A DNA stretch of 64,000 nucleotides, taken from the NCBI GenBank assembly GCA_963681965.1, contig OY820579.1:1792001-1856000 (forward strand), in the 5' to 3' direction. The stretch is from a bacterium. GTDB lineage: Bacteria > Electryoneota > JAOADG01. The translations under genes and the position numbers were made by a program. Below are positions 5,530-29,735 of the stretch, piece by piece. The stretch's first letter is position 1; each line of letters begins with the position of its first letter. The notes below the pieces were generated by a model, which saw only the letters and a program-made list of their open reading frames with translations, was not told where the DNA came from and made no database searches.

Positions 5530-5530
5530 G

Positions 5531-7174
5531 ATGACACCGACTGATACAATAACAATTTCGGTTGTTATCGTAAATTTCAATGTTCGGTATCTCTTGGAGC
5601 AGTGCCTATTGTCCTTGCGGAGAGGCATTGAATCACTCAAACTTCAAATTATTGTTGTCGACAATGCGTCGTCGGATAACTCGATTAATTATCTAAAAGA
5701 ACGGTTTCCCGAGGTTGAATTTGTTGCGTTAGCTGAAAATATGGGTTTCGCCAAAGCGAACAATATCGGATTAGCTAAATGCATCGGCGAATACATATTA
5801 ATTCTCAATCCTGATACTGTACTAGTTGAAGACACCCTGCCTAAATTGACTGATTTTCTTAAATCCAATCCATCTTGTGGGTTAGTAACTCCGAAATTAA
5901 TAAGAAAAGATGGCGCCCTCGATCTGGCTTGTCGCAGAGCGCTTCCAACGCCGTGGGTGGCGTTCTCGCGGATTAGTGGTCTAAGTAATATCTTTCCTAA
6001 GTCTAAATTATTTAGTCAATATAATTTAACTTACCTCGATTGCGATCAACCAGCTCGGATCGGTTCATTAACCGGTGCATTCATGCTCATGCCAAGCGAA
6101 GTTTATCGAAAAGTGGGAGGTTTCGACGAGCAGTTCTTCATGTATGGGGAAGACATCGATTTTTGTGCGCGAGCTGCCCAGGCAGGTTATGAAATCCATT
6201 ATCGACCGGAAGCGACTGCAATCCACTACCGGGGTGAATCGACCCGCAGAAGTAGTTTAGATCGCACCGATGTGTTTTACAACGCGATGCTCCTTTACGC
6301 TCGAAAGCATTATCGAGGCGGATCGAAAAAAATTGGTTTACCATTATTGCAAACTGGAATCTTTTTCGCAAAAGCAGGCTCTCAAATCCTTCAAGGGTCA
6401 CGTTTGATCTGGCCGGTAATGCTGGATGCGGTTTTAATCGCAATCGCGTTAAATTTCGGGCAGTTGTTGCGATGGGGTTCGCAACTAGATTTACTCTTGG
6501 ATTTTCGCGTTTTAGTTGCTTATATCATTTTTGTGGTGCTTTCGTTAACTGCTGCGGGAGCTTATTCGGAATCGGTCAAGCAACTCCCGAAAGCAGCGTT
6601 TAAAGGAACGGTACTTGGATCTTTTGTAGCAGGTACGTATACTTTCTTTTTGCTTCAAGGATATATGTTTAGCCGGTTGGTAGTGCTCATCTCAGCATTA
6701 TTATGGTGTATTTTTCTGCCTGGGTGGCGTTTTTTATTGCTTCAAATGGCAAAAACCTCTTGGGCTAGAGGATTATTGCGTCGATCGGCGATTATCGTAG
6801 GTACGGATAGTTTAGCGAAATCGATCGGCGAACAATTTCAACACCAGCAGGGCGAATATGAAATTGTTGGATTTGTACGTTACCGTAATGAAGTTGTAGA
6901 TTCAAGTTTTGGATATGATCCATTAGGATCGACTGACGAACTCGATCGGATTGTTGAAACCGAGCGTGTGTCGGATGTATTTTTTTCTACCGGTGGTGCA
7001 TCGTATGCGGAAATTGTCGCACTGGCGAACCGCTTGGCACCACAAGGAGTTCATTTTAAAGTGCTATCGGCGGAAGCGCCAGGCTCGGCATTACCGTTAT
7101 TTGGGGTCGATTGGCAAACACCAATTGGCATCCGCGGATTAATGCGGCGTGTGCAGCGACGCTGGGGGTTATAA
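5531..7174 (+). CDS. GT2 glycosyltransferase fused to a 4-TM + Rossmann-like (CoA_binding_3/WcaJ N-terminal-like) module
   Basis: N-terminal IVNFN, VVDNAS, LNPD, FFMYGEDID. The C-terminal half has hydrophobic helices then RSAIIVGT...IVGFV...LGSTDELDRIV. Confidence 0.85.
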   Translation: MTPTDTITISVVIVNFNVRYLLEQCLLSLRRGIESLKLQIIVVDNASSDNSINYLKERFPEVEFVALAENMGFAKANNIGLAKCIGEYILILNPDTVLVEDTLPKLTDFLKSNPSCGLVTPKLIRKDGALDLACRRALPTPWVAFSRISGLSNIFPKSKLFSQYNLTYLDCDQPARIGSLTGAFMLMPSEVYRKVGGFDEQFFMYGEDIDFCARAAQAGYEIHYRPEATAIHYRGESTRRSSLDRTDVFYNAMLLYARKHYRGGSKKIGLPLLQTGIFFAKAGSQILQGSRLIWPVMLDAVLIAIALNFGQLLRWGSQLDLLLDFRVLVAYIIFVVLSLTAAGAYSESVKQLPKAAFKGTVLGSFVAGTYTFFLLQGYMFSRLVVLISALLWCIFLPGWRFLLLQMAKTSWARGLLRRSAIIVGTDSLAKSIGEQFQHQQGEYEIVGFVRYRNEVVDSSFGYDPLGSTDELDRIVETERVSDVFFSTGGASYAEIVALANRLAPQGVHFKVLSAEAPGSALPLFGVDWQTPIGIRGLMRRVQRRWGL

Positions 7175-8133
7175 TGGAAACACTATTTCTCGATTTTGAA
7201 AAGAGAATTGCCGAAATCGAACAGGAGATTGATAATCTCCGCAACAACAGCAAACTAGATGCCGAAGATAAAGAACCATTAATTGCGAAATTGGAAGAAA
7301 AGACTCGCAAAGAGATGGAAAAAACTTTCTCGAATCTTACACGATGGCAGAAAGTTCAATTAGCTCGGCATCCTCGACGTCCTTATTCACTCGATTATAT
7401 CAAGCAGTTCGATCCCGACTTTTTGGAACTGAACGGCGATCGTGGATTTCGCAATGACCGTGCGGTTGTCGGCGGACTGTGTAATATCGACGGTATCCCG
7501 GTGATGGTGATCGCTCAGCAAAAAGGGCGAGGAACCAAAGAAAACCTACTTCGCAATTTCGGTATGAGTCATCCGGAAGGGTATCGTAAAGCGATGCGCT
7601 TGATGAAAGTTGCGGAACGGTTCAGCGTACCGGTCGTTTCGTTGATCGATACTCCTGGTGCTTATCCCGGTATCGGCGCTGAAGAGCGTGGTCAAGCAGA
7701 AGCAATTGCCCGCAATCTATTCGAGATGATCAATCTCAAGACACCGACTATTACGGTGATCATCGGCGAAGGCGGTAGCGGTGGCGCTTTGGCTTTAGCT
7801 GTCATGGATCGCGTTCTAATGATGGAATTCGCGATCTATTCGGTGATATCACCCGAAGGGTGCGCATCGATTTTGTTCCGTGACAGCTCGCAAGCAGAAA
7901 AAGCTGCGGAAAATCTAAAAATCACTGCCAATGATCTGGAGTCTCTCGGTGTAATCGATGAAATCATTCCAGAACCGTTGGGTGGTGCTCACCGTGACTA
8001 TTCGACTGCTGCCATCAACGTTCAGAAAGCGATCGGACGTAATCTCCGCGAGTTGATGGCGATCCAAAATCCCGATTGGCAGCAAATGCGCATCGAGAAA
8101 TATTCAAAGATGGGAGTATTTACGGTTGACTGA
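7174..8133 (+). CDS. accA: Acetyl-CoA carboxylase carboxyltransferase subunit alpha
   Basis: LDFEK, ARHPRRP, NFGMSHPEGYRKA, DTPGAYPG, GEGGSGGA, YSVISPEGCASIL. Start re-called to the ATG overlapping the upstream TAA. Confidence 0.97.
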   Translation: METLFLDFEKRIAEIEQEIDNLRNNSKLDAEDKEPLIAKLEEKTRKEMEKTFSNLTRWQKVQLARHPRRPYSLDYIKQFDPDFLELNGDRGFRNDRAVVGGLCNIDGIPVMVIAQQKGRGTKENLLRNFGMSHPEGYRKAMRLMKVAERFSVPVVSLIDTPGAYPGIGAEERGQAEAIARNLFEMINLKTPTITVIIGEGGSGGALALAVMDRVLMMEFAIYSVISPEGCASILFRDSSQAEKAAENLKITANDLESLGVIDEIIPEPLGGAHRDYSTAAINVQKAIGRNLRELMAIQNPDWQQMRIEKYSKMGVFTVD

Positions 8134-8593
8134 ACCGTGGATCATTACCACCTCAGTCCGGGTACGTTACGCCGACACCGATAAAATGGGTGTAATGTAT
8201 TATGGGCGCTATATGGAATTGTTCGAAGTCGGTCGTACCGAATGGATTCGCGCCTGTTGGCGACCTTATGTCGAAATCGAACGTGAAGGTGTTTTACTGC
8301 CGGTAGTGCATGCTGCAGCGACCTACCGGCAGAGTTTTCACTATGATGATCTAATCCAGATCCGGACTTTCCCAGTCGGAATACAGAAAGCTAGAATTAG
8401 ATTTGGATATGAACTATTTGGTGATAACGATCAGCAACCGCGAATTATCGGTCTAACTGAACACGCTTTTGTCGATGAATCCGGTAAGACCGTCAGAATA
8501 CCGAGTAAATTGGCGCAGCTACTATCCGGGCGCGTTCCCGAGCAGTTAACGAAATTCGATTTACGCGACCATCTGTTGTCTTCGAACGGGTGA
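8126..8593 (+). CDS. Acyl-CoA thioesterase (YbgC/4HBT hot-dog family)
   Basis: VRVRYADTDKMGVMYYGRYMELFEVGRTE signature. Confidence 0.92.
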   Translation: MTEPWIITTSVRVRYADTDKMGVMYYGRYMELFEVGRTEWIRACWRPYVEIEREGVLLPVVHAAATYRQSFHYDDLIQIRTFPVGIQKARIRFGYELFGDNDQQPRIIGLTEHAFVDESGKTVRIPSKLAQLLSGRVPEQLTKFDLRDHLLSSNG

Positions 8594-8692: not shown

Positions 8693-8721
8693 TTGACAAT
8701 GCGTAACACCAAATGTAGATT
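8693..8721 (+). promoter_or_regulatory. Sigma-70-type promoter of the porU operon
   Basis: TTGACA (8693-8698), 17-nt spacer, TAGATT (8716-8721). Confidence 0.7.
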
Positions 8722-8815
8722 GTATCATATTATTGGAGAATGCCCTTAGCACCTTGCGACCGAACTAGGTTTGGCTAAATATAACCTGATCGACAACTCT
8801 GTCGATCACAGTTGT

Positions 8816-8846
8816 GCCGAACCTTGGGTTCGGTTTTTCGTTTGTT
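8816..8846 (+). terminator. Intrinsic-terminator-like hairpin inside the porU leader
   Basis: GCCGAACC-TTG-GGTTCGGT followed by TTTTCGTTTGTTT, just upstream of the porU RBS. Confidence 0.5.
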
Positions 8847-8858: not shown

Positions 8859-11800
8859 ATGCGGTGGTTTTCGGTATTAATCTTCATTTTAATAACCAGT
8901 TCGTTTGCAAGTTCAAGGTTGCCTTCGAATACGCTTCCACTTGCCGGAGTGGCGCTCCGAGTCTCGACTTATGAACAACTCGATTTCACCGTTTCCAGTG
9001 ATATTGTGAATCGGGAATCGAAACCGGGATCTTGGAAAGTGAAAGCGATTGATGGAACCTACCGGGTCGATCGAAATGGTCTGAAACATCCAGCGAAATT
9101 AGTATGGATTGCCGTTCCTCCCGGAAAACGGGTTCAGTTGACCTCGATAAAACCACAATCGACTTCATATCTGTCGGGTACGCTCGAACCTGCAATCTCC
9201 GATACGGCTAGGTCTGACTTGTTACGCGCTATGACTGGATCGAATTGGATTGAAATTGGAGAGCTGAATACTTTGCTGGGACATACTGTTGTGCCAGTAT
9301 ATATCATGTTTGCCGTTCAAAATGGCAATAGTATTGCGTACTCCAGCAACATCGCTGTTTCACTGCGGTTTGTTGACATTACTTCGACACAATCCGTCGA
9401 TCGAACACAATTGGCGCCGCTTCCCGATTATATTTTGAATCATTCGACGGCGAACAGATGGCGAACCTCGCGATCTTCAATCATGTCGCTAACTCAAACA
9501 TCAACTGTTGCCCCGATAGGACCACTGTACCGAATTTCAACCAATTCCGAGGGAATTACTGAAATCACAGGAGCGGAATTACAGCGAGCCGGAATCAATC
9601 TATCCCAAATCGATCCTCTTTCAATTAGATTATTGAGTAATTCGGCAAAGCCATTGGATGAAGCGTTGACAGCGGCGTTAAAAGAACCGTGGAATGAAAT
9701 TGCAATTCTTGTGGAAGACGGAAACGACGGTAGATTCGATCCAACCGATCGCATCTTGTTTTACGGTGAATCCACATACGGTTGGTCCCGGAACTCTAAT
9801 TCAACTTTCAGCCATTGGTTATCTCCATATACGCGCAAAGCGACTTATTTTCTCGATTTGAATCAAGGTGGATTACCCGGTCGCAGAATGTCATCACTCC
9901 CATCTGCCAACGATGAATTACTGGTGACCACAGCTATTGGTCGCTACCTTCGCGAAGACGATTTAAGCTGCTTTGCCAATGCATCATTCACTACCTCCGG
10001 AACACGATGGGTGGGTCCGTTATTGACGAATACCTCGGATATCATTCTGACTTTGCCACTTGCCGGCGCAGTTGCTTCACCTACCGGTATCGTAAAATTT
10101 TCTTCTCGGTGGGTATCAACCGATAATCTTTATCCATCCAATGGAAGATTTCTTTTGAACGGAACGCAATTCGACGCATCATCGTTTTCCTATTACGATA
10201 TTGTGATCAATAATCAGGCGAGCGCTTCGTTATTGCATGAGGGAGCGAATCAATTTACTGCGCGGAAAACGGGGAGCCACGATTTTTACTTCGACTGGTT
10301 GGAAGTTGAATATCCCCGCGATTTGACCATGCGGAATGGAAAGTTATTTGCCGATGTAACTATCGGATCGAAATATCGGGTGAACATCACCACCACGACG
10401 CTTCCCTATGTATTCGAGGTTTCGAATCGCGATAGTGTTCGATGGATTCACAATAAGAGCTTTGCCGATTCTGGATCTTCATTACAGTATCGCCGCTACG
10501 TGGCATTCGACGAAGATGCCTTTTTACATGTAGTATCGATCGACCCCGCACGTTTTGGTGGTGAAGATTACTCCTATCTTCGGGACACAACATTATCGGC
10601 AGATTATTTATTGATCTACGATGACGATTATCACGATCCCGCCAAGAAATTGCGCGATTACCGGATCTCACATAATTCGGTTGATGCGAAGATGATCCGA
10701 ATTCAGGATATTTACGATTGTTTCTCCGGGGGGAATGTCGATCCTGTCGCGATTAGGAATTTTCTTCGGTATACCGTCACCTCTTGGTCGCGTTCTCATT
10801 CGATTCCCAAATATGTCATGTTATTCGGCGATGGCGACTACGATTATCGTGGAATTCTTCAACCGAATACTAATCGACCGATTCCGGCATACGAAATCAG
10901 TACTTATGCCACGGACGATTATTTTACCAGATTGACTGGTTCGACTGCATTACCCGAAATGATATCTGCACGCTTACCGCTCCAAACGCCCCGACAGATG
11001 GATGCTTGGGTAGATAAATTGATGACCTACGAAACACAGCCGGTACCCGGAACATGGCGGAATAAAATCGTTTTATGTGCCGATGATGAGTATGGACAAG
11101 GCGGAACCTATGATGCATTTGAGCAAACCCATACCGAAAAAACCGAAGATATTTCCCGACGACTGATTCCAAATACATACGAGCAAGTGAAAATATACCT
11201 ACTTGAATATCCTGCAATCGTCGATCCAGTTCAATTAGCAAATGTCAAACCGGAAGCAAATGCCGCATTATTGACCGAACTCGAGCGCGGTGCTTTGATG
11301 GTGAATTGGATCGGGCATGGCAATCCGCGAGTTTGGGCGCACGAGCAATTGTTGCGTGAAAGTCGCGATTTAAACCGGATTAATACCGGGATGAAACTGC
11401 CACTTTGGCTGGGTTTCACTTGCGATTGGGCTTACTGGGACGATGCCGCGGTTCAAAGTATGCCGGAAAAATTGTTAGGCTTATCGAACAATGGAGCGCT
11501 GGCGGTCGTTGCAGCAACTCGACCAACTGGTGCCGATCCCAATGAAATTTTAGCCGATTACTTTTTCCGGGCAATACTGGACACATTGCAGCATCCCCAC
11601 CGGTCGATTGCCGAAGCGCTGACATTGGCAAAAGTCCAATCGGGAACCGATGCCCCGTATTCTCGCGCCAATTCCAGTTTATATACCTCGCTATGCGATC
11701 CGTTGACACGATTGGCATTGCCGGAATACGATATCGGAATCGATTCGATAACTCCATCGCCGATTACCCCATTGGCTCGCTCAATGACCCATGGTAAAGT

Positions 11801-12761
11801 AGTAATACAAGATGGATCCAGTCTTAGCGATGGTCAACTTACCGTCACATTGCGCAGTTCGCCATTGAAGCGAGTACATCATTGGGATGATGATCCATCG
11901 AATTCAGCCATAACTTATTTCAAACCGGGAAGATTGCTGTTCCGAGGTACGACGACATTGACGGATACTAGTTTCCGAACCCCATTATTGTTGCCGCTTG
12001 ATGTTACCTATAATGACAGCGCAACTGCTTATGCTTATGCGAACGGTAGTTGGGGTGCGGCATCGGGAATTCTGATCAATCAACGCACCGATTCGGTTTG
12101 CGCGAATTTACGCGATACGATTCCGCCTGCGATAAAGCTTTTTATTAACAATCGAGAATTTCGTAGCGATGATATTGTGAATGACAACCCGATTTTACTA
12201 GCCGATATCGTCGACTCCAGTGGTGTAAATTTGACCGGTGAAATCGGACATCGTATTATTGCAACGATTGACGGCAAGGATCTGGATTTTACCGAACAAT
12301 TCGCCTACATGAACAATCAAGTCACCAAGGGAACGGTAGAATCGCCACTAGGCTTCCTCGATCCGGGCAAACATCACTTGCGACTGGTTGCCTTTGATGG
12401 TGCTAATAATCCCGGAGTCGCCGTGATTGATTTCGAAGTTGCCTCGACCTCTTCGGAGTTATCGGTGCGGAATCTGTTGAACTATCCGAATCCAATCAGT
12501 GGAAACACGGCTTTTACGTTCGAATGTTCCGTTGCCGGAACGGCTTCGATCGATATTTATTCAATACACGGTACAAAAATCCGGTCAATATCTAGTTTCC
12601 CGATTCACATCGGGTACAACTATCCTTCGGAGGCGACATGGGATGCACGCGATAAAGATGGCGTGGATGTTGCCAACGGGGTTTATCTATGGCGACTAAA
12701 AGCGAAAGCCGACGATGGACGATCGGTGGATGCTACCGGTCGCGCAGCGGTTTTACGATAA
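8859..12761 (+). CDS. porU: PorU-like type IX secretion sortase/peptidase (C25 gingipain family) with C-terminal T9SS/FlgD-like domain
   Basis: Signal peptide MRWFSVLIF... after a GGAGAG RBS. C25 hallmarks DPVAIRNFL, LFGDGDYD, TDDYF, WIGHG (catalytic His), FTCDW (catalytic Cys). CTD LNYPNP...WDARDKDG...NGVYLWRL. Confidence 0.85.
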   Translation: MRWFSVLIFILITSSFASSRLPSNTLPLAGVALRVSTYEQLDFTVSSDIVNRESKPGSWKVKAIDGTYRVDRNGLKHPAKLVWIAVPPGKRVQLTSIKPQSTSYLSGTLEPAISDTARSDLLRAMTGSNWIEIGELNTLLGHTVVPVYIMFAVQNGNSIAYSSNIAVSLRFVDITSTQSVDRTQLAPLPDYILNHSTANRWRTSRSSIMSLTQTSTVAPIGPLYRISTNSEGITEITGAELQRAGINLSQIDPLSIRLLSNSAKPLDEALTAALKEPWNEIAILVEDGNDGRFDPTDRILFYGESTYGWSRNSNSTFSHWLSPYTRKATYFLDLNQGGLPGRRMSSLPSANDELLVTTAIGRYLREDDLSCFANASFTTSGTRWVGPLLTNTSDIILTLPLAGAVASPTGIVKFSSRWVSTDNLYPSNGRFLLNGTQFDASSFSYYDIVINNQASASLLHEGANQFTARKTGSHDFYFDWLEVEYPRDLTMRNGKLFADVTIGSKYRVNITTTTLPYVFEVSNRDSVRWIHNKSFADSGSSLQYRRYVAFDEDAFLHVVSIDPARFGGEDYSYLRDTTLSADYLLIYDDDYHDPAKKLRDYRISHNSVDAKMIRIQDIYDCFSGGNVDPVAIRNFLRYTVTSWSRSHSIPKYVMLFGDGDYDYRGILQPNTNRPIPAYEISTYATDDYFTRLTGSTALPEMISARLPLQTPRQMDAWVDKLMTYETQPVPGTWRNKIVLCADDEYGQGGTYDAFEQTHTEKTEDISRRLIPNTYEQVKIYLLEYPAIVDPVQLANVKPEANAALLTELERGALMVNWIGHGNPRVWAHEQLLRESRDLNRINTGMKLPLWLGFTCDWAYWDDAAVQSMPEKLLGLSNNGALAVVAATRPTGADPNEILADYFFRAILDTLQHPHRSIAEALTLAKVQSGTDAPYSRANSSLYTSLCDPLTRLALPEYDIGIDSITPSPITPLARSMTHGKVVIQDGSSLSDGQLTVTLRSSPLKRVHHWDDDPSNSAITYFKPGRLLFRGTTTLTDTSFRTPLLLPLDVTYNDSATAYAYANGSWGAASGILINQRTDSVCANLRDTIPPAIKLFINNREFRSDDIVNDNPILLADIVDSSGVNLTGEIGHRIIATIDGKDLDFTEQFAYMNNQVTKGTVESPLGFLDPGKHHLRLVAFDGANNPGVAVIDFEVASTSSELSVRNLLNYPNPISGNTAFTFECSVAGTASIDIYSIHGTKIRSISSFPIHIGYNYPSEATWDARDKDGVDVANGVYLWRLKAKADDGRSVDATGRAAVLR

Positions 12762-12783
12762 TGGAATCAATACGGAGGATTGC

Positions 12784-13830
12784 ATGAAACGACTACTGAT
12801 TTCAGTGCTAATGGGAATGATTGCACTGTTGATCTGCGCCCAGGCTTATGCCGGAGTTTCGGAAGCTGCGGCATTATTCCTGAAAATTTCCCCGGGTGCC
12901 CGGTACGGTGGCATGGGTGAAGCCGGTGTTGCACTGACCGACGATGCCAGTGCGACGTGGTGGAATCCCGCCGGACTCGGATTTCAGAACCAGCGACAGA
13001 TTACTATGATGCACGCAAATTGGTTGCCGCAGTTCCATCTTCCCGACCTATACTACGACTTTATTTCGTACGTGCACACTGTTCCTGAAGTAGGAACATT
13101 CGGTGGTCAGATTATCTTCCTCAATTTGGGAACTTCGACCAGAACCGATGAAGTCGGTAACGAACAGGGAACATTCTCGACCTACGAAGGGGCATTGGGA
13201 GCTTCCTACGGTACGCAACTTAATCAGCAGACTGCGCTCGGTATCAGTTTTAGAGTGATTTACTCGCATCTATCCGATCGTGGCGCTGGTGCTGAAAAAG
13301 GTTCCGGGAGCGCAACCGGAGTTGGAGTCGATGTCGGCGTAATCCATAAGGCGAAGTTTCTCAAGGGTCTTCAGTACGGTGCGAACTTGTCGAATATGGG
13401 TCCGAAAATTTCCTATATCGATGCCGCTCAAGCCGATCCCATTCCGACCAATTTGAAATTAGGCGTTGCATATCACTTACTCGATACCGAATTCAACAAA
13501 GTAACATTTGTAGCCGATGTCGATAAGGAACTGGTTCGCAAATACAGTGATGGTACATCCGATCCATTTTATGTAGCATTGGTTACTAGTTGGACTGATG
13601 AGCCATTGATTCAGGAAATGATTTATCACGTTGGCGCTGAATATTGGTATACGAATTTGGTCGGATTGCGGATGGGCTACTGGAACGACCAACAAGGTAA
13701 AGTCAAACCATTGACGTTCGGTGCTTCGCTGCAATATTCGGTCTATCGTTTCGATTTTAGCTATGTTTCCGCCGGTGAAGGACATCCTTTGACCGATACA
13801 ATGCGCTTCTCGCTATCGATTGGTCTCTAA
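12784..13830 (+). CDS. porV: PorV/PorQ-family (FadL-like) outer-membrane shuttle of type IX secretion
   Basis: FLKISPGARYGGMGEAGVA, ATWWNPAGL, NLSNMGPKISY, PTNLKLG, DTMRFSL. Start re-called to the ATG after GGAGG. Confidence 0.88.
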   Translation: MKRLLISVLMGMIALLICAQAYAGVSEAAALFLKISPGARYGGMGEAGVALTDDASATWWNPAGLGFQNQRQITMMHANWLPQFHLPDLYYDFISYVHTVPEVGTFGGQIIFLNLGTSTRTDEVGNEQGTFSTYEGALGASYGTQLNQQTALGISFRVIYSHLSDRGAGAEKGSGSATGVGVDVGVIHKAKFLKGLQYGANLSNMGPKISYIDAAQADPIPTNLKLGVAYHLLDTEFNKVTFVADVDKELVRKYSDGTSDPFYVALVTSWTDEPLIQEMIYHVGAEYWYTNLVGLRMGYWNDQQGKVKPLTFGASLQYSVYRFDFSYVSAGEGHPLTDTMRFSLSIGL

Positions 13831-13882
13831 TCGATGAACGATCCTAACAACGCTGTCGGCACATCTACAAGGACGGATTGCA

Positions 13883-16800
13883 GTGACTAATCGATTGTAC
13901 TTAATAGCGGGTTTGATTGCGGTACTGGTTTCGGTTTCGGTGGCAGTATCTACTCCACTAAAACCGTTATTTCGAGGAGTGAAGTCCGGTTCCGATTTCA
14001 AATCGCGGTCGATTGTCAGCTTGCGTCCGACGATGCGGATTCTCGCAATTCGTGTCGATTTTCCACGCGATACCATTTCGACTACGACCGGTGATGGTGG
14101 TTTCGATTTTGGAAATCGCGAAGGACGCAAAATCGATCCGCCTCCACATGACAGCAGTTATTTTCAAGATCAGTTCAAATTTGTCGATCACTATTTTCGA
14201 CAAGTTTCGGGAAACCGATTGTCGATGGAGGCTACGGTTTTTCCCTCCGGCAATCGTATTGCTTACCGAATGTCTGAGCCGATTTGGCATTATCATCCCG
14301 ATCCTGCCGACAACGACTTGACCAATCAACGGATTACCGAATTGTGGCGGGAAGCATGGAACGCCGCGGGTCAAGATCCCAATGTTCACTTTTATACTGT
14401 GAGTGGGACTGATACCATTCCTAATTACGACCTCTATGTTGTTTTGCATGCCGGTTCTGGAAATGAATACGATTTAGGGTATGACGATACTCCGTTCGAC
14501 ATCCCTTCGGGATTCATGACCAAAGCTGATTATTCAAAATATTTATCCATAACCAATCCCCGTGGATTACCCATAACGACTTCTGACGGTGGCACCTTCT
14601 ACATCCCGGAAGGTGCCTTACTGCCGGAGATGTCGTCGCAGAAAACCGGTTCCGAATGGATCGATATCGGAGTCGGAGGTCTTTATACATTTTTACTCGG
14701 TCGATCGATCGGTATGCCGTTCCTGTACGATGTCGACAAGGGAACCTCGCGAGTTGGACGGTGGAGCCTGATGGATCGTGGATTCGGAACGTTTTTCGGT
14801 ATTCTTCCCGGATATCCCGACGCCTATACTCGAATGCGGATGGGCTGGGTACAACCAGTTCCAGCACCCGATACCGGCATCGTGGAACTTCGAATTCCGC
14901 AGGATACACTCCATCCCACGCTGCCTGAAGTCATGCGGTTCGAAGGTGCCGGCGACGAATATTATCTGATGGAAGCCCGGAATCGCGATCCTGATTCGGT
15001 GAAATGTGCTTATGTCTATGATGTTGCCGGACATCGTGCCAAACTGACCGATCAATATGAAATCGAACTTGATACCTCACTCGCTAATTCATTTGGCGTG
15101 ATCGTTCGTGCCGATAATTACGAATTCGATACACCCGGTAGTGGAGTGCTCGTTTGGCGCGTGAATGCTGCTGAAGAGCGACGTCGTACCGCGTTGAATA
15201 TCCCTTTCCAAACCGGTTCTATACCGTATGTTTTGAAATTAATCGAAGCCGATGGTTCCGAGGATTTCGGTCAGAATTACGATATGTTTTCACCCGGGAG
15301 TGGTACTGAAACCGGATCTCCCTACGATGCATTTTTCCGGAATAATACCGAATGGTCGCATGCCAATGGCGACGATGGCGCAGTTCGCTTTTCACGCGAA
15401 GTAAATCCCCCGGCAATCACTTCGAATGGTGCGCCACTACAGTTTACACTTGGGCAATTCTCTTCAGTTGGTTGGACGATGTCCTTCCGGGTTTATCGAA
15501 ATTCGAATCAACTGGAAGGCGAGAAACGGTTCCGGATTTCGCCGTCGAAGTCACCCGTCGTAGCAATTCCCTTTGATGTGAACAACGACCGCTTCGATGA
15601 AGTTTGGATTGCCGACAGTAATGCCATTTACGGACTTACTACCGATGGAAATTGGATCGGCACCGACACAATCCGATTCGTAACGCACGATCAGACCACA
15701 GGTGCGATGCTGGATTCGATTGCTTCGCCGGCACTATTCCACTTCGACGGTCCTCCGATTCGGAAAATGGTCTTTCATAACGCTTCCGGATCGTTGCGAA
15801 TATTAGCCTATCGATGTTATGCCGATGGTAGCGGAAAACGATTGACAGATTATGCTTGCACACTGCCAATTTCCGGAGCAGTGTCGTTATCGCAACATTC
15901 GATCGATCTACCGGGAGCAGTGACTACACTTGCTTGCGACGAAACCAGTAATCAGTGGATTGTTGGATTGAGTGATTATGCAATTGTACGCGATTCGATC
16001 CGGACCAATCCACAATTAGTAATGACGTTTATCAATCGATCTTATCATCTCGATATTCTGAATCCGAGTGGCACAGATCTCGAATTTCCACTCCCATCGG
16101 ATCTATCGGGAAATCCGGAAATCTTTGGTTTAAACTCTACTGTTCCGCTGGCAGGTGTTGGAAATCGATTATACCGGTATTCCGGAACGGAATGGTCCCT
16201 TGATCCTTCGTTTTCGATGGTCGCCGATTCGATTAAAGCGATTGGCTGGACAAGTGAAAACGCTGTTGTTATTACTCGCAACCAGTGGCTATTAACCAAT
16301 GGTAAATCGCTTCGAACCGGATTTCCGCGCAGATTGCCATCCTCTTCAGCGCCAATATCTTTGGTGGCTGCCAAGACAACACAAACCGATCCGGTAATCT
16401 GGTACGGCACCGAAACCGGTGAATTATGGAAATTGTATCGTGATCGAGTGGATCGCAATTATCCGATTGCGATCGGTATTCAACCCGTGGACGGTTTGGT
16501 TTTGTTGACTGCTCATCATATACCTACTGCTCCGGATTCGGTGCGATTGGCAGCGGTGTCTCGCGATGGTGTGGTTTTTTTGACGACTTTACCCTTATCG
16601 GATGTTGAAGCGGCTACTTGGGCAGCCCCTGCCGGTACCGGCTCCGGATTACCGAATTCTACTCCCGAACGGGATTGGTCGGTGATGTACGATAACGGTC
16701 TCTCGTATGCATTCGTATGGCCCAATCCGATCAAGGGGAATCAGGGATTTGTCCGGGTAGGGTCAAATCAAGCCGGAATGTCCCAAGCCAAAGCCGAAGT

Positions 16801-16972
16801 ATTCGACGTTATCGGAGAGCGAATCGCGACACTACATAATCCCTATCCAGTAGAAGGGGGCGGGTACGAATGGCGCTGGGATGTTTCTTCAGTCTCGCGT
16901 GGTTTGTATATCGTTCGCGTTCAAGTTCCCGGTGCTCCGGTTAAAATGATCAAAGCAGCGGTGGTAAAATGA
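13883..16972 (+). CDS. Secreted M6 (immune inhibitor A)-like protein lacking HExxH, with beta-propeller-like region and C-terminal T9SS sorting domain
   Basis: ILAIRVDF, VVLHAGSG, GMPFLYD, GRWSLMD, RMRMGW, EYYLMEAR, GSGVLVWRV, LIEADG are M6 scaffold motifs. CTD VWPNP...VFDVIGE...WDVSSVSRGLYIVRV. Confidence 0.75.
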   Translation: MTNRLYLIAGLIAVLVSVSVAVSTPLKPLFRGVKSGSDFKSRSIVSLRPTMRILAIRVDFPRDTISTTTGDGGFDFGNREGRKIDPPPHDSSYFQDQFKFVDHYFRQVSGNRLSMEATVFPSGNRIAYRMSEPIWHYHPDPADNDLTNQRITELWREAWNAAGQDPNVHFYTVSGTDTIPNYDLYVVLHAGSGNEYDLGYDDTPFDIPSGFMTKADYSKYLSITNPRGLPITTSDGGTFYIPEGALLPEMSSQKTGSEWIDIGVGGLYTFLLGRSIGMPFLYDVDKGTSRVGRWSLMDRGFGTFFGILPGYPDAYTRMRMGWVQPVPAPDTGIVELRIPQDTLHPTLPEVMRFEGAGDEYYLMEARNRDPDSVKCAYVYDVAGHRAKLTDQYEIELDTSLANSFGVIVRADNYEFDTPGSGVLVWRVNAAEERRRTALNIPFQTGSIPYVLKLIEADGSEDFGQNYDMFSPGSGTETGSPYDAFFRNNTEWSHANGDDGAVRFSREVNPPAITSNGAPLQFTLGQFSSVGWTMSFRVYRNSNQLEGEKRFRISPSKSPVVAIPFDVNNDRFDEVWIADSNAIYGLTTDGNWIGTDTIRFVTHDQTTGAMLDSIASPALFHFDGPPIRKMVFHNASGSLRILAYRCYADGSGKRLTDYACTLPISGAVSLSQHSIDLPGAVTTLACDETSNQWIVGLSDYAIVRDSIRTNPQLVMTFINRSYHLDILNPSGTDLEFPLPSDLSGNPEIFGLNSTVPLAGVGNRLYRYSGTEWSLDPSFSMVADSIKAIGWTSENAVVITRNQWLLTNGKSLRTGFPRRLPSSSAPISLVAAKTTQTDPVIWYGTETGELWKLYRDRVDRNYPIAIGIQPVDGLVLLTAHHIPTAPDSVRLAAVSRDGVVFLTTLPLSDVEAATWAAPAGTGSGLPNSTPERDWSVMYDNGLSYAFVWPNPIKGNQGFVRVGSNQAGMSQAKAEVFDVIGERIATLHNPYPVEGGGYEWRWDVSSVSRGLYIVRVQVPGAPVKMIKAAVVK

Positions 16973-19900
16973 AGCGAACGACTGCCTACTCGATTTTAGG
17001 AATATCGCTCCTGCTGCTGATTGGAGTGGCGTTTGCGCAAGTAACTCCATTCAATCACGCTGAATTATTATGGCGAACGATCGAAGGGAAGCACCACATC
17101 GTCCATTACCACGTCGGCGCTGAACGTACTGCTCAAATGATTTTGGATATTGCCGACGAAGTACATCAACCACTTGCCGATCTGTACAAATACGAACCGG
17201 ATACGAAAGTCAACTGGGTCATTTACGATACCGACGATTATGCCAACGGCGCGACGTATTTCCTGAACAATCGCATCGTGATCTGGGCACCGGCACTCGA
17301 TTTTGAATTTCGTGGTACGCATAATTGGCTTCGAAATGTTGTGACGCATGAATATACTCATATGATTCAACTCGGAGCTGCACGGAAGTGGTCGCGACAG
17401 ATGCCGGCGATCTACGGACAGTATATCGGTTATGAACCGGAAACCCGACCCGATGTTCTGTATGGTTTCCCGAATCGGATCATGAGTTACCCACTATCCA
17501 ATACTACCGTTCCTCATTGGTTTGCCGAAGGAACAGCACAATCGATGCGCCGCGGAATGAATTACGATTATCGCGATAGCCACCGCGAGATGCTTCTTCG
17601 CTCTCGAGCGCTTGCCGACAATTTGTTGACGATGGATGAGATGGGTGTCTTCGAGAAGACTAGTCTTGGCGGCGAATTGGTTTACAACCAGGGATTTGCG
17701 TTAGTTCAATACATAATCGACCGGTTCGGTGAAACTGCTTTAAGAACACTATCTGAATCACTCGGGTCAATGTCGGTTTGGTCGTTCGATGCCGCGTGCC
17801 GGAAGACACTGGGTATACCGGCTCAGAAGCTTTACGATGAATGGGTTCGCGCGATGAAGGAAACCTATCGCGTGCGCACTGAAACAATACGCCAGCACGA
17901 AGTGACCGGTCGATTGTTGGAAGAAGATGGCTTTGCTAATCTATATCCACGATGGTCGATCGACGGGAAAAAAATATACTTTACCTCGAATAAGGAAAAG
18001 GATTATTTCGGTGGATCGTCGTTGGTCGAGATGAATCTTGCAACCGGTAAGAAAGAGAAGCTCGTCAAAACAATGGCACCCTTTGCAGTTCACCCGAATG
18101 GCAAAGGATTGATCTATTCGGAACAACCGTTACAAAAGGGGCAGCGACGACTCGACGATCTATTCTTCTACGATTTTGCGAAGAAAAAATCCTACCGGCT
18201 GACTTATGCCGAACGTGCGCAACAACCCGATGTTTCATCGGATGGGAAAAAGATTGTCGCCGTCACGCAATCCGACGGAACGATGAATCTTGTCGTGTTT
18301 GAACTTCCCGATTCGATCAAAGCCGATGTGAAGCAAAAAGCACAACTGAAGAAACGAGTATTGACATCCTATGTCAATGGCGAACAATTATCTCACCCTC
18401 GATTTTCACCTGACGGAAATAAAATTCTTTATTCTTTCGCACGCGAACAAAACCGCGATCTATTCGAATTCGATCTAACGACAAATACTTCCACGCTACT
18501 GCGCGCGAGTAAATGGGATGACCGCGACGTCGCATGGTCAAAAGATGGTCAGTGGATCTATTTTTCCAGCGACTCAACTGGTATCTGGAATATTTACCGG
18601 ATGCGTAGCGATCGCACAATCATCGAACCGGTGACGAATGTTGTCGGCGGTGCTCTGCTCGGTGAACCATCGCCGGATGGTGCGAAATTGGCATTCTGTC
18701 GATACGAATCGACCGGCTATAAGTTAGCATTATTGGATAAAATCGAACCAGTCGATCGAGCATACATGCAGTATCAACAGAACTATGCTCAATCGCTGCC
18801 GAATGTGTCGATACCCGATTCGATGCCACCGGCGAAACCAGTCATGAAATACAAACCGGCATTCGAGAAAACCTATATTCTTCCGCGAATTGCTTGGGAT
18901 TACGGTCGTTTCAAACCCGGTTTCTATGTCTATACGAACGATTATCTGGAAAAATTGAACCTGTTCGGTGGCTTTGCGATTAATGGTAAGAAGGACTACG
19001 ACTTGTATTTGTCGACCGACTACCGACAACTTCCACCGACGTTGTTCATGGACTTTTACAATATCGTCCGTCACGACGATAAACGATTCGATGATCCGCT
19101 CCGAATTGTTGGTCAATCCGGTCACGGTGATTCAGCCCAACCGATTTATGCACAATATGGAACAAAATATAAGTTCACGTTGCTCGAATTGGATATCGGT
19201 TTCCGGTACAATATCGATGAGAAGACTGTTGCCAGTTTGTATGGTATGTTCTCGCGCTACAGTGCGGCACTAGATTTCGACGACGGTTCATCATCGTTTG
19301 GTTACACGTATTTCAAAGGTCACAGTCTTGTCGCTTCGCTTACGCAAACCGCAATTACGCGCAGTGTAACCGATGACATCAATCCGTCCGGTGGTTATCA
19401 ATTCGGAATTCGGGCGCAACGCTCGCAGCACAATTACATCCAAGGGTTCACCATCAACGCCGATAAACTGACACTGCAGGAAGTCTATTCACCCTACAAT
19501 TACTGGCAGTTGGAAGGATCGTTTAATTATTATCAGAAGCTCTGGCATAAATGGGTGATGTCGCCGTCGGTTAAACTTGGTTATATCGATCGTAACGTCG
19601 ATCCATTCATGAATCTTTATGCCGGTGGTTTGTTCGGGATGCGCGGCTATTCGTTCTATAGTCTTGGTGGTACTCGCACGACTATTGCACAACTAGCACA
19701 GGAACTCCCGTTGTGGGAGCCGATGGGCAAACGACAGTATCTCGGTTGGGTACATCCGATAAGCGTCTATGCCAATCTATTCGCCGATGTCGGATCGGCA
19801 TGGCGTGGCGATGTGCAACATGCAAAATGGGTGCGGGATTTGGGTGGTGAATTGCGGTTTGGTTCGATATCGGTATTCAGTTATCCTACCGCGATCACGT

Positions 19901-20055
19901 TGTCGGCAGCACGCGGATTAGACCGGGTATCGGTGACCGAAAACGACAATACGACCGTATATGCGCCCCAGTGGCGATATTACTTCACAATTTTATTTGG
20001 ATTTACTCAACCGCCGACTGGAATACAACCAGCTCGTGCGATTGACCGGCAGTAA
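16969..20055 (+). CDS. Zincin peptidase + TolB/PD40 beta-propeller + Omp85-family beta-barrel fusion
   Basis: HEYTH (aa 127-131) plus WFAEG. PD40-like repeats (PRWSIDGKKIYF, PRFSPDGNKILY, WSKDGQWIYF). Omp85 signatures MRGY (aa 891) and FADVG (aa 938), last strand YYFTILFGF. Confidence 0.78.
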   Translation: MKRTTAYSILGISLLLLIGVAFAQVTPFNHAELLWRTIEGKHHIVHYHVGAERTAQMILDIADEVHQPLADLYKYEPDTKVNWVIYDTDDYANGATYFLNNRIVIWAPALDFEFRGTHNWLRNVVTHEYTHMIQLGAARKWSRQMPAIYGQYIGYEPETRPDVLYGFPNRIMSYPLSNTTVPHWFAEGTAQSMRRGMNYDYRDSHREMLLRSRALADNLLTMDEMGVFEKTSLGGELVYNQGFALVQYIIDRFGETALRTLSESLGSMSVWSFDAACRKTLGIPAQKLYDEWVRAMKETYRVRTETIRQHEVTGRLLEEDGFANLYPRWSIDGKKIYFTSNKEKDYFGGSSLVEMNLATGKKEKLVKTMAPFAVHPNGKGLIYSEQPLQKGQRRLDDLFFYDFAKKKSYRLTYAERAQQPDVSSDGKKIVAVTQSDGTMNLVVFELPDSIKADVKQKAQLKKRVLTSYVNGEQLSHPRFSPDGNKILYSFAREQNRDLFEFDLTTNTSTLLRASKWDDRDVAWSKDGQWIYFSSDSTGIWNIYRMRSDRTIIEPVTNVVGGALLGEPSPDGAKLAFCRYESTGYKLALLDKIEPVDRAYMQYQQNYAQSLPNVSIPDSMPPAKPVMKYKPAFEKTYILPRIAWDYGRFKPGFYVYTNDYLEKLNLFGGFAINGKKDYDLYLSTDYRQLPPTLFMDFYNIVRHDDKRFDDPLRIVGQSGHGDSAQPIYAQYGTKYKFTLLELDIGFRYNIDEKTVASLYGMFSRYSAALDFDDGSSSFGYTYFKGHSLVASLTQTAITRSVTDDINPSGGYQFGIRAQRSQHNYIQGFTINADKLTLQEVYSPYNYWQLEGSFNYYQKLWHKWVMSPSVKLGYIDRNVDPFMNLYAGGLFGMRGYSFYSLGGTRTTIAQLAQELPLWEPMGKRQYLGWVHPISVYANLFADVGSAWRGDVQHAKWVRDLGGELRFGSISVFSYPTAITLSAARGLDRVSVTENDNTTVYAPQWRYYFTILFGFTQPPTGIQPARAIDRQ

Positions 20056-20086
20056 CAAAACGACGCGTTAACAGGAGGTAGTAAGA

Positions 20087-21004
20087 ATGTGGTATAAATT
20101 AATCATTTTGGTTTTAGCGTTGTGTTCGATTTCCTTCGCGATACCGTACAAGGAAGCGGATAATTCCGATAATATGCAACCATTACCGAAGTCACTCAGT
20201 CAACTTCAGCATGAGCGCGAAATCAAACTGGTGGCAGCGATGGAAAGTGGTGCCCCAACCGATTCGACAACTGCTGCTCCGGTAAAAGGTCCGAATATGG
20301 GCAAAGCGATGTTGTTATCGGCGATCATGCCCGGAACCGGTCAACTCTACATCGGAAGCAAATGGAAAGGGTATACTTTCCTAGGAATCGAAGCCGCTGC
20401 TTGGACAATGGCAATCATGTACAATGTCAAAGGCAACCAAACAACGAAAGATTTTCAGAATTATGCCGAATCCCACTGGGGTGTAAACGAATCCTTATAT
20501 CGCCAAAAGGAATTCTATTACGCGACATTGAATAGTCTCCCCTCGCGAATTTCTTCGACACCTTATCAGGGAACCCGTGCCGATTGGGATTTATTGAGCT
20601 GGGATGACAAATCGAAATATTTACCATCGAACTTCACCCACGAACTGCCGTCATCGCATAATCAGCAATGGTACGAAATGATTGGTAAGTATTTGACGCA
20701 ATTCGGTCCCTTCTGGGATGACGCCGATACTTCGTCTTCGGCATACAGTGCGACCGGCGTTTGGTCAGGATCCAGTACAACTGCCAATAAATACGCCGAC
20801 AAACGATATGATGCGAACAAGCAATTGAAAGCCGGAAATACAATGTTCATGGTTGTAATGATCAATCACGTATTGTCCGCAACGGACGCTGTATTATCGG
20901 TTAAAGCGATGAACAATCGAACCGTCCAAACTGCCGTTCGATTGGAACAGCGAAGCTTCAACAATGAAGTAGTCACGATGCCAACACTTCATATTACGTT
21001 CTGA
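20087..21004 (+). CDS. Exported DUF5683-like protein
   Basis: Signal peptide, LLSAIMPGTGQLY motif, second hydrophobic helix with NHVLSATDA, terminal aromatic strand PTLHITF; strong GGAGG RBS. Confidence 0.65.
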   Translation: MWYKLIILVLALCSISFAIPYKEADNSDNMQPLPKSLSQLQHEREIKLVAAMESGAPTDSTTAAPVKGPNMGKAMLLSAIMPGTGQLYIGSKWKGYTFLGIEAAAWTMAIMYNVKGNQTTKDFQNYAESHWGVNESLYRQKEFYYATLNSLPSRISSTPYQGTRADWDLLSWDDKSKYLPSNFTHELPSSHNQQWYEMIGKYLTQFGPFWDDADTSSSAYSATGVWSGSSTTANKYADKRYDANKQLKAGNTMFMVVMINHVLSATDAVLSVKAMNNRTVQTAVRLEQRSFNNEVVTMPTLHITF

Positions 21005-21006
21005 CA

Positions 21007-21642
21007 ATGAAACGACTCTATCTGGTAATTTTTTCTGGATTGATTGCGCTGACGTCGTTTGCGCAACCGCTCCCGCGTCCGAAAGCACCTACCGGTTCAA
21101 CGGTATTTTTCAAGTCGCTGTTGTTACCGGGATGGGGGCAGATGTCGCAGGGAAGACCAAAAGAGGCTACAATTTTCCTGTCATCCGAAGCGATCCTAAT
21201 TGTTACTACATTTGGTTTGCAAACCTACGGTGATTGGCTCAAAAGCGACTATCGATCGGTAGCAGCGCTCTATGCCGGGATCCCGAATGGCGGTAATCGG
21301 AACCATACAATGTATGTCGATATGGGAAATTGGAATACCGTGGAAGAATTCAATGCTGCACGACAACGCGATCGCGAATATGATCGACAATATTTGAAAG
21401 CCGAGGATCAGTGGCGCTGGACGAATGATTCCGAACGAAGGCGTTTTAAAGCGCTTCGTTTGAAATCGGATAAAGTATTGGAATCGGTTAAATTCTCGAT
21501 CGGTGCGGTAGTCGTCAATCATTTTATTGCCGCAATTGAAGCATCAGCATTCGAACGTAAGAAAGTGAAAAACCCGTCGATCGGTGTCACGATGTCGGGA
21601 ACAACGAGCGAACCACAGGTTCGACTTCATGTGAATTGGTAA
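21007..21642 (+). CDS. Exported DUF5683-like protein (paralog of upstream gene)
   Basis: Signal peptide, KSLLLPGWGQ motif, NHFIAAIEA helix, terminal strand VRLHVNW. Confidence 0.65.
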   Translation: MKRLYLVIFSGLIALTSFAQPLPRPKAPTGSTVFFKSLLLPGWGQMSQGRPKEATIFLSSEAILIVTTFGLQTYGDWLKSDYRSVAALYAGIPNGGNRNHTMYVDMGNWNTVEEFNAARQRDREYDRQYLKAEDQWRWTNDSERRRFKALRLKSDKVLESVKFSIGAVVVNHFIAAIEASAFERKKVKNPSIGVTMSGTTSEPQVRLHVNW

Positions 21643-21657
21643 ACTTCTGTTACGCGG

Positions 21658-21694
21658 AAAACGGGCAACTCGTCTGAGTTCGCCCGTTTTTTTT
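21658..21694 (+). terminator. Rho-independent terminator closing the porU operon
   Basis: AAAACGGGC-AACTC-GTCT-GAGTT-C-GCCCGTTTTTTTT. Confidence 0.85.
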
Positions 21695-21749: not shown

Positions 21750-22637
21750 ATGAAGAGACGAATCTTAATAACGGGTGCATCCGGATATCTTGGGGGGCAT
21801 CTAGTTCTCACTGCTCCACAGGATTGCGAGTGTTTCGCTATGTACCGGTCGGCTCGACCTGAAAGCGATTTTGGTGCTCATTGGATTCAGGGCGATTTAA
21901 TCGATGCTTCGCTTCCACATCAGCTAATCCGGGATATTCGACCCGATGCGATTATTCACAATGCCGCCTTATCGAAACCGGAAGAATGCGACGACAATCC
22001 CGATCTTGCCAATGAAATCAATATCGAAGCTACCGATCGTCTAGCTACTGTGTCCGATCAGACCAGTACCCGCTTTATATTTTTGTCTACCGATATGGTT
22101 TTCGATGGGAATCATCCCCCATATACCGAGTCATCCCTGCCAAACCCCATTCACCGCTATGGAATTACCAAAGTTACTGCTGAACGTCGAATTGCGAATA
22201 GATCGGATAAACATGCAATTGTACGTTCTTCCGTGATCTTCGGACCACAAGGGATCTTCAATTCCAATTTTGCCATGCATCTGATTGACCACTGGCAACT
22301 CGGCGAGCCGACCAATGTATTTGTCGACCAATTCCGAAATCACGTATCGGTGAAATGGTTGTGTCAAGCCTTGTATGAACTGACCGAATCCGCTTTCTCC
22401 GGGATCTTGCATCTTGGTGGCGGGGAATCGACGAGTCGAGCCGAATTTGCCCACTGTCTCGCGAAACGCTTGAATTATCCCGACCAATTGTTGACTGAAA
22501 CCTCTTTAGTTGGTAAGTTGCTTGCGCCTCGACCTCGAGATTTAACGTTCGATGTGCAATTAGCCAGATCGGTTTTGAAAACTTCACCGCTCACACTGGC
22601 GCAAGGTATTGCGTTGGAGTGGGCACAAATACTGTAA
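21750..22637 (+). CDS. RmlD-substrate-binding family SDR oxidoreductase (second copy)
   Basis: GASGYLG, LSTDMVFDG, YGITK, FVDQFRN. Confidence 0.85.
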   Translation: MKRRILITGASGYLGGHLVLTAPQDCECFAMYRSARPESDFGAHWIQGDLIDASLPHQLIRDIRPDAIIHNAALSKPEECDDNPDLANEINIEATDRLATVSDQTSTRFIFLSTDMVFDGNHPPYTESSLPNPIHRYGITKVTAERRIANRSDKHAIVRSSVIFGPQGIFNSNFAMHLIDHWQLGEPTNVFVDQFRNHVSVKWLCQALYELTESAFSGILHLGGGESTSRAEFAHCLAKRLNYPDQLLTETSLVGKLLAPRPRDLTFDVQLARSVLKTSPLTLAQGIALEWAQIL

Positions 22638-22641
22638 TGCC

Positions 22642-23301
22642 ATGACACCTATCGACTTATCAGCAACACAGCCCTATCTAGCGCTTGCCGGCAATATTGG
22701 CGTGGGAAAAACGACCATGACGACCCTACTGGCATCGAAATTGCGTTGGGATCCATGGTTCGAACCGGTCATCGACAATCCTTATCTCGACGACTTTTAC
22801 GCCGATATGCATCGCTGGAGTTTCCATCTCCAAATCTACTTTCTCTCGAAAAGATTCGAAGCGCAACGGCGCATCCTCGATAATTCGCGACCCTCTGTAC
22901 AGGATCGAACAATCTATGAAGATGTCGAGATCTTTGCTCGAACGCTACACAAACAGAAGTTTATGACTGATCGCGAATACGAAAACTACTCTTCGCTATT
23001 CTCTTGTATGATGGAGTATCTAAGACCACCGGATGCAATTGTATATCTACGCGCTCCGGTAGAGGTTTTGCTGGATCGAATTTCAAAACGCGGTCGCGAC
23101 TCCGAGAAGACTATTGCCAGATCATATTTGGAGGAATTGAATAACGCCTACGAAAGCTGGATCGAACGTTCAAAAGATCTAACTCAGGTGTTAATCTTCG
23201 ATACTGCCATTTTCGACAATGAAGGTGCAGATGCACTTTCAGATCGAATTATCAGTACGTTACGTGCAAGTCCACAATTATCATTCCTGCCATTTGCCTG
23301 A
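22642..23301 (+). CDS. Deoxynucleoside kinase
   Basis: P-loop AGNIGVGKTT, EPVIDNPYL, QIYFL, QDRTIYED, RISKRGR. Start re-called. Confidence 0.95.
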   Translation: MTPIDLSATQPYLALAGNIGVGKTTMTTLLASKLRWDPWFEPVIDNPYLDDFYADMHRWSFHLQIYFLSKRFEAQRRILDNSRPSVQDRTIYEDVEIFARTLHKQKFMTDREYENYSSLFSCMMEYLRPPDAIVYLRAPVEVLLDRISKRGRDSEKTIARSYLEELNNAYESWIERSKDLTQVLIFDTAIFDNEGADALSDRIISTLRASPQLSFLPFA

Positions 23302-28919: not shown

Positions 28920-28934
28920 ACTACTTGGAGTTAA

Positions 28935-29360
28935 TTGTCCGGTATGTTGCATCACGTTGAATTGTATGTCGCTGATTTGAATCGCTCTCTGGCGTTCTGG
29001 GATTGGTTTCTACGGGAACTTGGATACTCTGAATTCCAATCTTGGGACTCGGGAAAAAGTTTCAAATTCGGCGATACTTATATCGTATTTGTTCAAGCTG
29101 AACGGCGATTTTGTCAGGAACCGTACCACCGTTGTCGACCGGGTCTCAATCATCTGGCATTTCATGCGAAGTCACGCGAACAAGTAGACCAGATTTCAAG
29201 GGAAATTCAGTATAGGGGGTTGAAGTTACTATATCCTGAACGTCATCCTTATGCAGGTGGCGAAGGGTATTACGCCCTCTTCTTTGAAGATCCCGATCGA
29301 ATGAAAGTGGAATTGGTTGCTCCAGATCCCATCGAGATTAGTACTCACTCCGAGGGGTGA
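28935..29360 (+). CDS. VOC/glyoxalase family protein
   Basis: LHHVELYV, GLNHLAF, YYALFFEDPDRMKVELV. Confidence 0.92.
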   Translation: MSGMLHHVELYVADLNRSLAFWDWFLRELGYSEFQSWDSGKSFKFGDTYIVFVQAERRFCQEPYHRCRPGLNHLAFHAKSREQVDQISREIQYRGLKLLYPERHPYAGGEGYYALFFEDPDRMKVELVAPDPIEISTHSEG

Positions 29361-29494: not shown

Positions 29495-29518
29495 AAGATA
29501 CGAGGAGGAAGTGGTTCG

Positions 29519-29716: not shown

Positions 29717-29735
29717 CAGGATCAACATGAATTTG

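Follow-up and report, generated by a model that had tools for sequence, protein, structure and literature searches.

We propose that six adjacent genes in a bacterium of the phylum Electryoneota encode, for a type IX secretion system (T9SS) that has no recognisable motor, the sorting end and an outer-membrane accessory of four genes linked to porV; we give this reading a probability of about 0.5. The genes lie in a stretch of 64,000 nucleotides (the window), positions 1792001-1856000 of contig OY820579.1, the only contig of a 4.24-Mb genome that is 99.9% complete. The operon begins with porU and porV, which are a textbook gene pair, and continues with genes for an M6-like pseudo-protease, for a protein joining a zinc peptidase to a propeller and an Omp85 barrel, and for two DUF5683-like proteins (d1 and d2). 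In T9SS, cargo passes SprA bound to PorV, PorU cleaves the C-terminal domain (CTD) of the cargo, and the system is defined by the proton-driven GldLM motor. In several deep bacterial phyla the four genes after porV travel with it in genomes that encode pore and cargo but no motor that we recognise, which makes them good candidates for the missing components of a T9SS that is powered differently. As judged from sequence, the chance that the four are functionally linked to the T9SS is about even; each of the detailed roles suggested below for their products is more tentative, and would be clearly less likely than the linkage itself.

The identities that a preliminary description, made from the sequence alone, had given to all six products agree with our profile searches, alignments and models. 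PorU scores 618.8 bits on NF033707 (cut-off 420), also matches PF01364, and carries the GHG and TC motifs, which we take to be the catalytic His and Cys, in 38 of 40 aligned rows, both misses being truncated sequences. PorV scores 283.2 on NF033709 (cut-off 90), 210.7 on NF033710 (cut-off 250) and 95.3 on PF19572; both proteins are predicted to be intact. The genome holds seven PorV-family genes, among which the operon copy is the best canonical PorV (616 bits, against no more than 102 for the others). Paralogues at contig 27726-34016, 1699894-1702400, 1868698-1873960 and 2982848-2985929 each adjoin one atypical-CTD protein, in one case a 1738-aa second PorU-like protein, and each of these four, with its neighbour, resembles a private pair of cargo and shuttle that uses a type A signal.

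The best family match of the pseudo-protease is NF052323, at 276 bits against a cut-off of 600, which suggests a divergent clade of that family; TIGR03296 gives 54.5. The zinc motif HExxH is lost in all 64 of 64 orthologues, the middle of the protein is FG-GAP/VCBS-like (assigned through repeat families matched on relatives' proteins) and the C-terminus is a type A CTD that matches the sequence of the PorU CTD structure. Thus a CTD-tagged M6 protein that is predicted to be catalytically dead is nevertheless retained throughout this set. On a profile of bulk CTDs its CTD ranks 223 of 231, close to that of PorU (224) and of a PorZ-like protein (231).

In the next product the residues H127, E128, H131 and E187 are invariant in 24 of 24 orthologues, and HExxH with its glutamate is retained in 64/64, so that the zinc peptidase, which precedes the propeller, is predicted to be intact. 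Profiles give 70.1 bits for PD40 and 25.6 for Peptidase_MA_2 (cut-off 32.4). An AlphaFold2 model (pLDDT 79.6) has a peptidase domain, a propeller and a 16-strand barrel at about residues 636-1010. By VIA the model matches a TolB-like propeller at Z 25.5 and BamA/TamA barrels at Z 19-22, among them Deinococcus radiodurans BamA (Z 22.1, rmsd 4.0, 312 aligned) and Flavobacterium johnsoniae BamA (Z 20.4); Foldseek with the whole model returned propellers only, the barrel emerging in VIA. The loop-6 motif is (M/L)(R/K)G(Y/F), and loop 6 is conserved together with the first and last barrel strands. POTRA domains are absent (TIGR03303 22.6 bits, against 297). We rejected this protein as the T9SS pore or as BamA: it is not a substitute for either, because SprA and a canonical BamA (467 bits, with Skp, contig 2117917-2120292) are both encoded elsewhere. 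A 1069-aa protein of the same architecture, with HExxH intact, is encoded at contig 3661543-3670778, where its gene shares a run with those of a 577-aa POTRA-Omp85 and of a protein of roughly 1200 aa that has a weak SprA match (21 bits).

The last two products match PF18935 below its gathering score of 26.7 (d1 24.6 bits, d2 16.1 bits); DUF5683 is carried by 35-47% of members in the Atlas clusters nearest to d1, and hhalign joins d1 to d2 with a probability of 99.7 over 175 columns, which makes them paralogues. Both begin with a signal peptide, contain two helices of moderate hydrophobicity and finish in a C-terminal strand whose last residue is usually aromatic, as is typical of outer-membrane proteins (OMPs); in the d1 model (pLDDT 82.2) this strand is part of a beta-hairpin. 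Foldseek found no fold relatives of d1 at E 0.001, its best VIA match (Z 6.9) is to generic helices, and d1 has no PDB sequence match. Our literature search turned up DUF5683 in two papers, in one of them within a vesicle proteome table.

Gene order ties these four genes to porV. The pseudo-protease is found in 41/41 same-phylum genomes, and beside it in the 40 relatives we find porV in 40, porU in 39, Omp85 in 36 and d1 with d2 in 32, every missing neighbour being a contig end; the six-gene order is unbroken in all 32 of the 32 relatives whose contigs are long enough. A wider scan covered all GTDB species and considered the best 80 of at least 579 stretches, overlapping many of the same-phylum genomes. 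Here porV lies within 400 nt upstream of the pseudo-protease in 78/80 loci, Omp85 is next in 61/61 loci with room for it, d1 and d2 follow in 52/53, and porU is a neighbour in 36 of the 70 loci that are informative (37 if one split gene is counted). The deep conserved core is therefore porV, pseudo-protease, Omp85, d1 and d2, near-complete in its linkage and joined to porU in this phylum; porU itself we rejected as a core member. The preliminary description had named a lack of synteny between the last four genes and porUV in relatives as grounds for giving it up: the tie to porV is borne out far beyond the phylum, so this check does not count against it, but the unit conserved there is five genes led by porV and not six. 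Mean identities of these five genes across orthologues are 32-53%; their distance correlations (0.76-0.92) have no outside control and are not used as support.

The same six-gene order, with scores in the top range, occurs in loci titled Candidatus (Ca.) Electryonea, Ca. Hatepunaea and LCP-89; other titles in the wider scan are Calditrichaceae, KSB1, Ca. Zhuqueibacter, Ca. Delongbacteria and Ca. Neomarinimicrobiota, all depositor labels, of which some look automatic. In each of the five genomes with non-adjacent porU that we followed up, porU lies elsewhere with no porV match in its 1.5-kb flanks (one flank has a run of N); that porV stays with the pseudo-protease where porU moves away speaks for our reading. 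One Bacteroidia locus, from Parabacteroides, has ispF after porU-porV and not the cassette. Split open reading frames (ORFs) in single drafts, affecting d1 (L040:1023-1929), porU (L086) and pseudo-protease with Omp85 (L137), are probably assembly errors.

The preliminary description had found no sprA or motor genes within the window. Elsewhere in the genome sprA is present, at contig 943442-950065 (TIGR04189 714 bits, cut-off 200); of 50 genomes that bear the cassette, 49 have an SprA above cut-off. C-terminal type A CTDs occur in 231 ORFs, about 7% of the 3213 called, and reversed ORFs gave 1 match. The PorZ-like gene scores below cut-off, as do the SprE-like matches to NF052312 in 19 of 21 genomes; on a profile of the SprE-like matches a 921-aa lipoprotein (contig 1726539-1729304) scores 215 bits. 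In the run at contig 939853-950065, sprA is followed by genes for a 731-aa probable lipoprotein without family match and a DUF5723 barrel, both possible translocon partners.

We detected no GldM in 41 same-phylum genomes, with a positive control (record W04, a plasmid record annotated with gldM) at 331 bits, and none in 50 genomes in another search that had no positive control; GldL and GldN were each found in 0 of 51 mixed genomes, where the positive control scored. Against the ORFs of this genome the control proteins gave 6.4 bits at best for GldM, and only FGE-fold matches, to GldK. For GldL, hydropathy too yielded no convincing pair of 2-helix and 1-helix genes among 4 candidates. In five genomes GldK was never above its cut-off of 350 (best 89.8 bits, with matches that look like generic FGE-fold proteins), PorP was above cut-off in none, and Plug was found in none, in a search with no positive control. 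Since draft assemblies predominate among these genomes, and a strongly diverged homologue can escape a profile, we word the motor as not detectable. With SprA present and GldL, GldM and GldN not detectable, this is, on profile evidence, a variant T9SS without a recognisable motor. That much of the variant secretion machine suggested in the preliminary description stands; that its Omp85 is 'dedicated' is less secure, as this architecture also occurs where no T9SS has been described.

Other motors are present. The genome has four MotA/ExbB-type genes, and TonB/ExbBD-type motors occur in 5/5 genomes tested. One of the four genes belongs to an Agl/Glt-like cluster (contig 1141221-1152599, behind ATP synthase genes), which encodes 744-aa and 1910-aa TPR-type proteins, a 98-aa exported protein, an ExbB/TolQ-type protein, two ExbD-like proteins and an AgmX/PglI-tail protein (79 bits, cut-off 40). 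Its ExbB-type marker is found in 36/51 genomes, and the cluster is a candidate energiser for envelope machines; as the universal energiser we rejected it, the query having no match in 15/51. A motA-motB stator pair lies at contig 2800952-2802633 with no flagellar genes adjoining.

We suggest that the T9SS exports the pseudo-protease, which would then remain bound to PorV as a subunit resident on the cell surface. The precedent is that PorU and PorZ are reported to retain their CTDs and to sit on PorV and PorQ (PMC5445135, PMC12365241); the low bulk-CTD rank that the pseudo-protease shares with them also speaks for our reading. Its dead cleft could hold cargo. The peptidase would be anchored by the Omp85 barrel on the periplasmic side of the outer membrane and could there clear stalled or unexported cargo, a form of quality control for which the need may be greater without a motor; d1 and d2 might form a small outer-membrane hetero-oligomer serving the same site.

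Several observations weigh against this reading. The CTD of the pseudo-protease is not PorU-like, ranking 224 of 231 on a PorU CTD profile, and its low bulk-profile rank may reflect only a recent expansion of bulk cargo. The gap between pseudo-protease and Omp85 exceeds 400 nt in 7/64 loci, and extra genes are inserted in several genomes. A gene for an rmlD-like enzyme frequently joins the run (at a distance of up to 1.5 kb in 13 of 27 selected loci with porU non-adjacent or out of view), so synteny by itself does not imply one machine; nor are the loci independent, since they come from related genomes and were chosen by their pseudo-protease. Finally, clusters from Myxococcota, Bdellovibrionota and Pseudomonadota commonly show the peptidase-propeller-Omp85 architecture, which thus extends to lineages without a described T9SS, and the further copy in this genome stands in another gene context.

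An alternative is an operon for general outer-membrane upkeep, in which the Omp85-peptidase would be a general OMP quality-control protease or a second insertase, d1 and d2 its clients or helpers, and porV a neighbour only for co-regulation in an old envelope cluster. We regard this as possible, though doubtful. The architecture occurs outside T9SS lineages and is listed as a WD40-like Omp85 subfamily with aminopeptidase matches (PMC4104836); the conserved loop-6 motif and barrel strands, like the glycosyltransferases, accA and rmlD-like gene among the neighbours, also speak for such a role. It accounts less well for an order of porV, CTD protein, Omp85, d1 and d2 that is almost unbroken while the flanks, and even porU, change; one member bears a T9SS export signal, and a canonical BamA with Skp is already encoded elsewhere. 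A narrower role, in which the pseudo-protease is one important surface cargo, either an adhesin or a scaffold, encoded together with its shuttle, and Omp85-peptidase, d1 and d2 mature or display it alone, has parallels in the other PorV-family genes here that directly adjoin single CTD proteins, in the cargo-specific shuttles reported for type B CTDs (PMC12618676) and in the overlap of the pseudo-protease and Omp85 genes. We consider it very unlikely, since the cassette PorV is the best canonical PorV, directly follows porU in this phylum and has about 230 cargos to serve.

Alternatively the cassette might replace motor and plug, PorV-cargo being freed from SprA by binding and cutting, as in a ratchet, and not by proton-driven pulling. 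In F. johnsoniae, cargo becomes trapped on SprA once the motor is lost (PMC10994853), yet the genomes studied here keep SprA and large cargo sets without GldL, GldM, GldN or, in the uncontrolled search of five genomes, Plug; moreover the obvious alternative, the Agl/Glt-like motor, is without a match to its query in 15 of 51 of them. On the other side, no part of the cassette resembles an inner-membrane ion motor or spans the periplasm, the TonB/ExbBD-type motors could energise SprA, and the motor is possibly just too diverged for profiles, so that we think replacement unlikely. The same low odds apply to the broader view that deep phyla related to the Fibrobacterota-Chlorobiota-Bacteroidota (FCB) group run an ancestral motor-independent T9SS for hundreds of cargos, and that the products of the four porV-linked genes take over from the PorKLMN energy chain and Plug the release of cargo from SprA. 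We retain, at the odds given above, a motor-less T9SS with an outer-membrane accessory at its sorting end.

Features of the operon and its borders are collected in Table 1. Six co-oriented, exported proteins with genes overlapping or at most 52 nt apart had been described, and this is what the ORFs give: the spacings from porU to d2 are 22, 52, -4, 31 and 2 nt, the pseudo-protease and Omp85 genes sharing 4 nt in this genome, and a signal-peptide-like N-terminus can be read by eye on all six products. One transcript across the six genes is plausible.

Table 1. Positions in the window of the operon genes and of neighbouring elements.
Feature	Position	Strand	Basis
porU, T9SS sortase, peptidase C25 with own CTD, 1300 aa	8859..12761	+	NF033707, PF01364
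porV, T9SS shuttle barrel, 348 aa	12784..13830	+	NF033709, NF033710, PF19572
M6-like pseudo-protease, FG-GAP/VCBS-like middle, type A CTD, 1029 aa	13883..16972	+	NF052323, TIGR03296
Zinc peptidase / TolB-like beta-propeller / 16-strand Omp85 barrel, no POTRA, 1028 aa	16969..20055	+	motif, AlphaFold2, VIA
DUF5683-like protein 1 (d1), 305 aa	20087..21004	+	PF18935, model, hydropathy
DUF5683-like protein 2 (d2), d1 paralogue, 211 aa	21007..21642	+	PF18935, hhalign
Intrinsic-terminator-like hairpin with 8 T	21657..21694	+	-21 kcal/mol, z -5.7
Sigma-70-like site, 10/12 matches	8693..8721	+	not above chance
rmlD-like reductase, frequent seventh gene in relatives	21750..22637	+	PF04321 155.7

The single promoter and strong terminator once ascribed to the operon fare less well. 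The putative promoter, TTGACA-17-TAGATT, is one of 24 such sites where chance alone would give 26.9, and between it and porU stands a hairpin with a T run (8816-8834) that resembles a terminator. A near-perfect inverted repeat (8787-8808) stands beside this hairpin, just 5' of porU; the elements at 8787-8834 are possibly an operator, an attenuator or a terminator of upstream genes. At the 3' end the hairpin is strong in itself (its z-score is relative to 300 mononucleotide shuffles), but it is absent from the output of a terminator scan and particular to this genome, not conserved: the 3' end is variable, with the rmlD-like gene at most 60 nt after d2, without a terminator, in 19/32 relatives. 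Upstream (window 4750-8593) are genes for two GT2 glycosyltransferases, accA and a thioesterase, and downstream (21750-23301) the rmlD-like gene and a deoxynucleoside kinase. Both groups recur near the operon in several families, glycosyltransferases, accA and the rmlD-like gene appearing in various loci as the flanks vary; the sugar genes may make a cargo anchor.

The porU-porV pair, the propeller-Omp85 architecture (2014, PMC4104836) and the pseudo-protease family (NCBIfam) are already known. That the arrangement is functionally undescribed, as the preliminary description supposed, agrees with our literature search, which, at listing and abstract level and with few subscription papers, returned no account of the operon or of a motor-less T9SS in these phyla; PMC8542988 contains no more than a reference to T9SS. 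One complete genome and dozens of relatives now offer SprA, sorting enzymes and, in the complete genome, 231 cargo genes, with motor and ring undetectable. This makes testable both the energy source of T9SS and the form that it took before the motor, with the operon supplying four candidate parts. Gene context is also gained for the peptidase-bearing Omp85, the inactivated M6 protease and DUF5683, families for which we found no functional study.

Among known systems, NF052323 (T9SS-dependent M6-like inactivated metalloprotease), a family named in NCBIfam, shares with our pseudo-protease its architecture, the lost zinc motif and a C-terminal T9SS signal, the difference being that our protein scores under the family cut-off. 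The WD40-like Omp85 subfamily, catalogued in 2014 by Heinz and Lithgow (PMC4104836; aminopeptidase match 1z5h, 17 occurrences in Table S3) and mentioned again in PMC11358297, has the same plan: a TolB-like propeller and an aminopeptidase-type domain replacing POTRA, a 16-strand barrel and the loop-6 motif. The consulted part of that survey gives neither function nor gene context, whereas in the present genomes one clade is a constant member of a porV operon. For Omp85, PorV and a surface subunit together there is a structural precedent, by analogy only, in the Bacteroidota barrel assembly machinery BamA-BamG-BamH-BamM (PMC12611786), in which an Omp85 barrel is reported to combine with a barrel of the FadL family and with surface proteins; in contrast, the operon Omp85 is without POTRA, bears a peptidase and comes from a genome that also encodes a canonical BamA.

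Compared with canonical T9SS (PMC10515386), the genome has SprA, a putative SprE-like lipoprotein, Skp beside bamA, type A CTD cargos, PorU and PorV, whereas GldL, GldM and GldN are undetectable and GldK, Plug and PorP under cut-off. By the mandatory set reported for T9GPred (GldK, GldL, GldM, GldN, SprA, SprE; PMC10515386) it would be scored T9SS-negative, and current prediction rules would thus miss T9SS in these genomes. A further parallel to our proposal concerns the attachment complex PorU-PorV-PorZ-PorQ of Porphyromonas gingivalis (PMC12365241, PMC5445135): the PorKN ring under that complex is undetectable here and four genes are added after porV, but PorU and PorV are intact and adjacent, a PorZ-like gene lies elsewhere in the genome, and both systems would have CTD-bearing machine parts that stay on PorV-family barrels.

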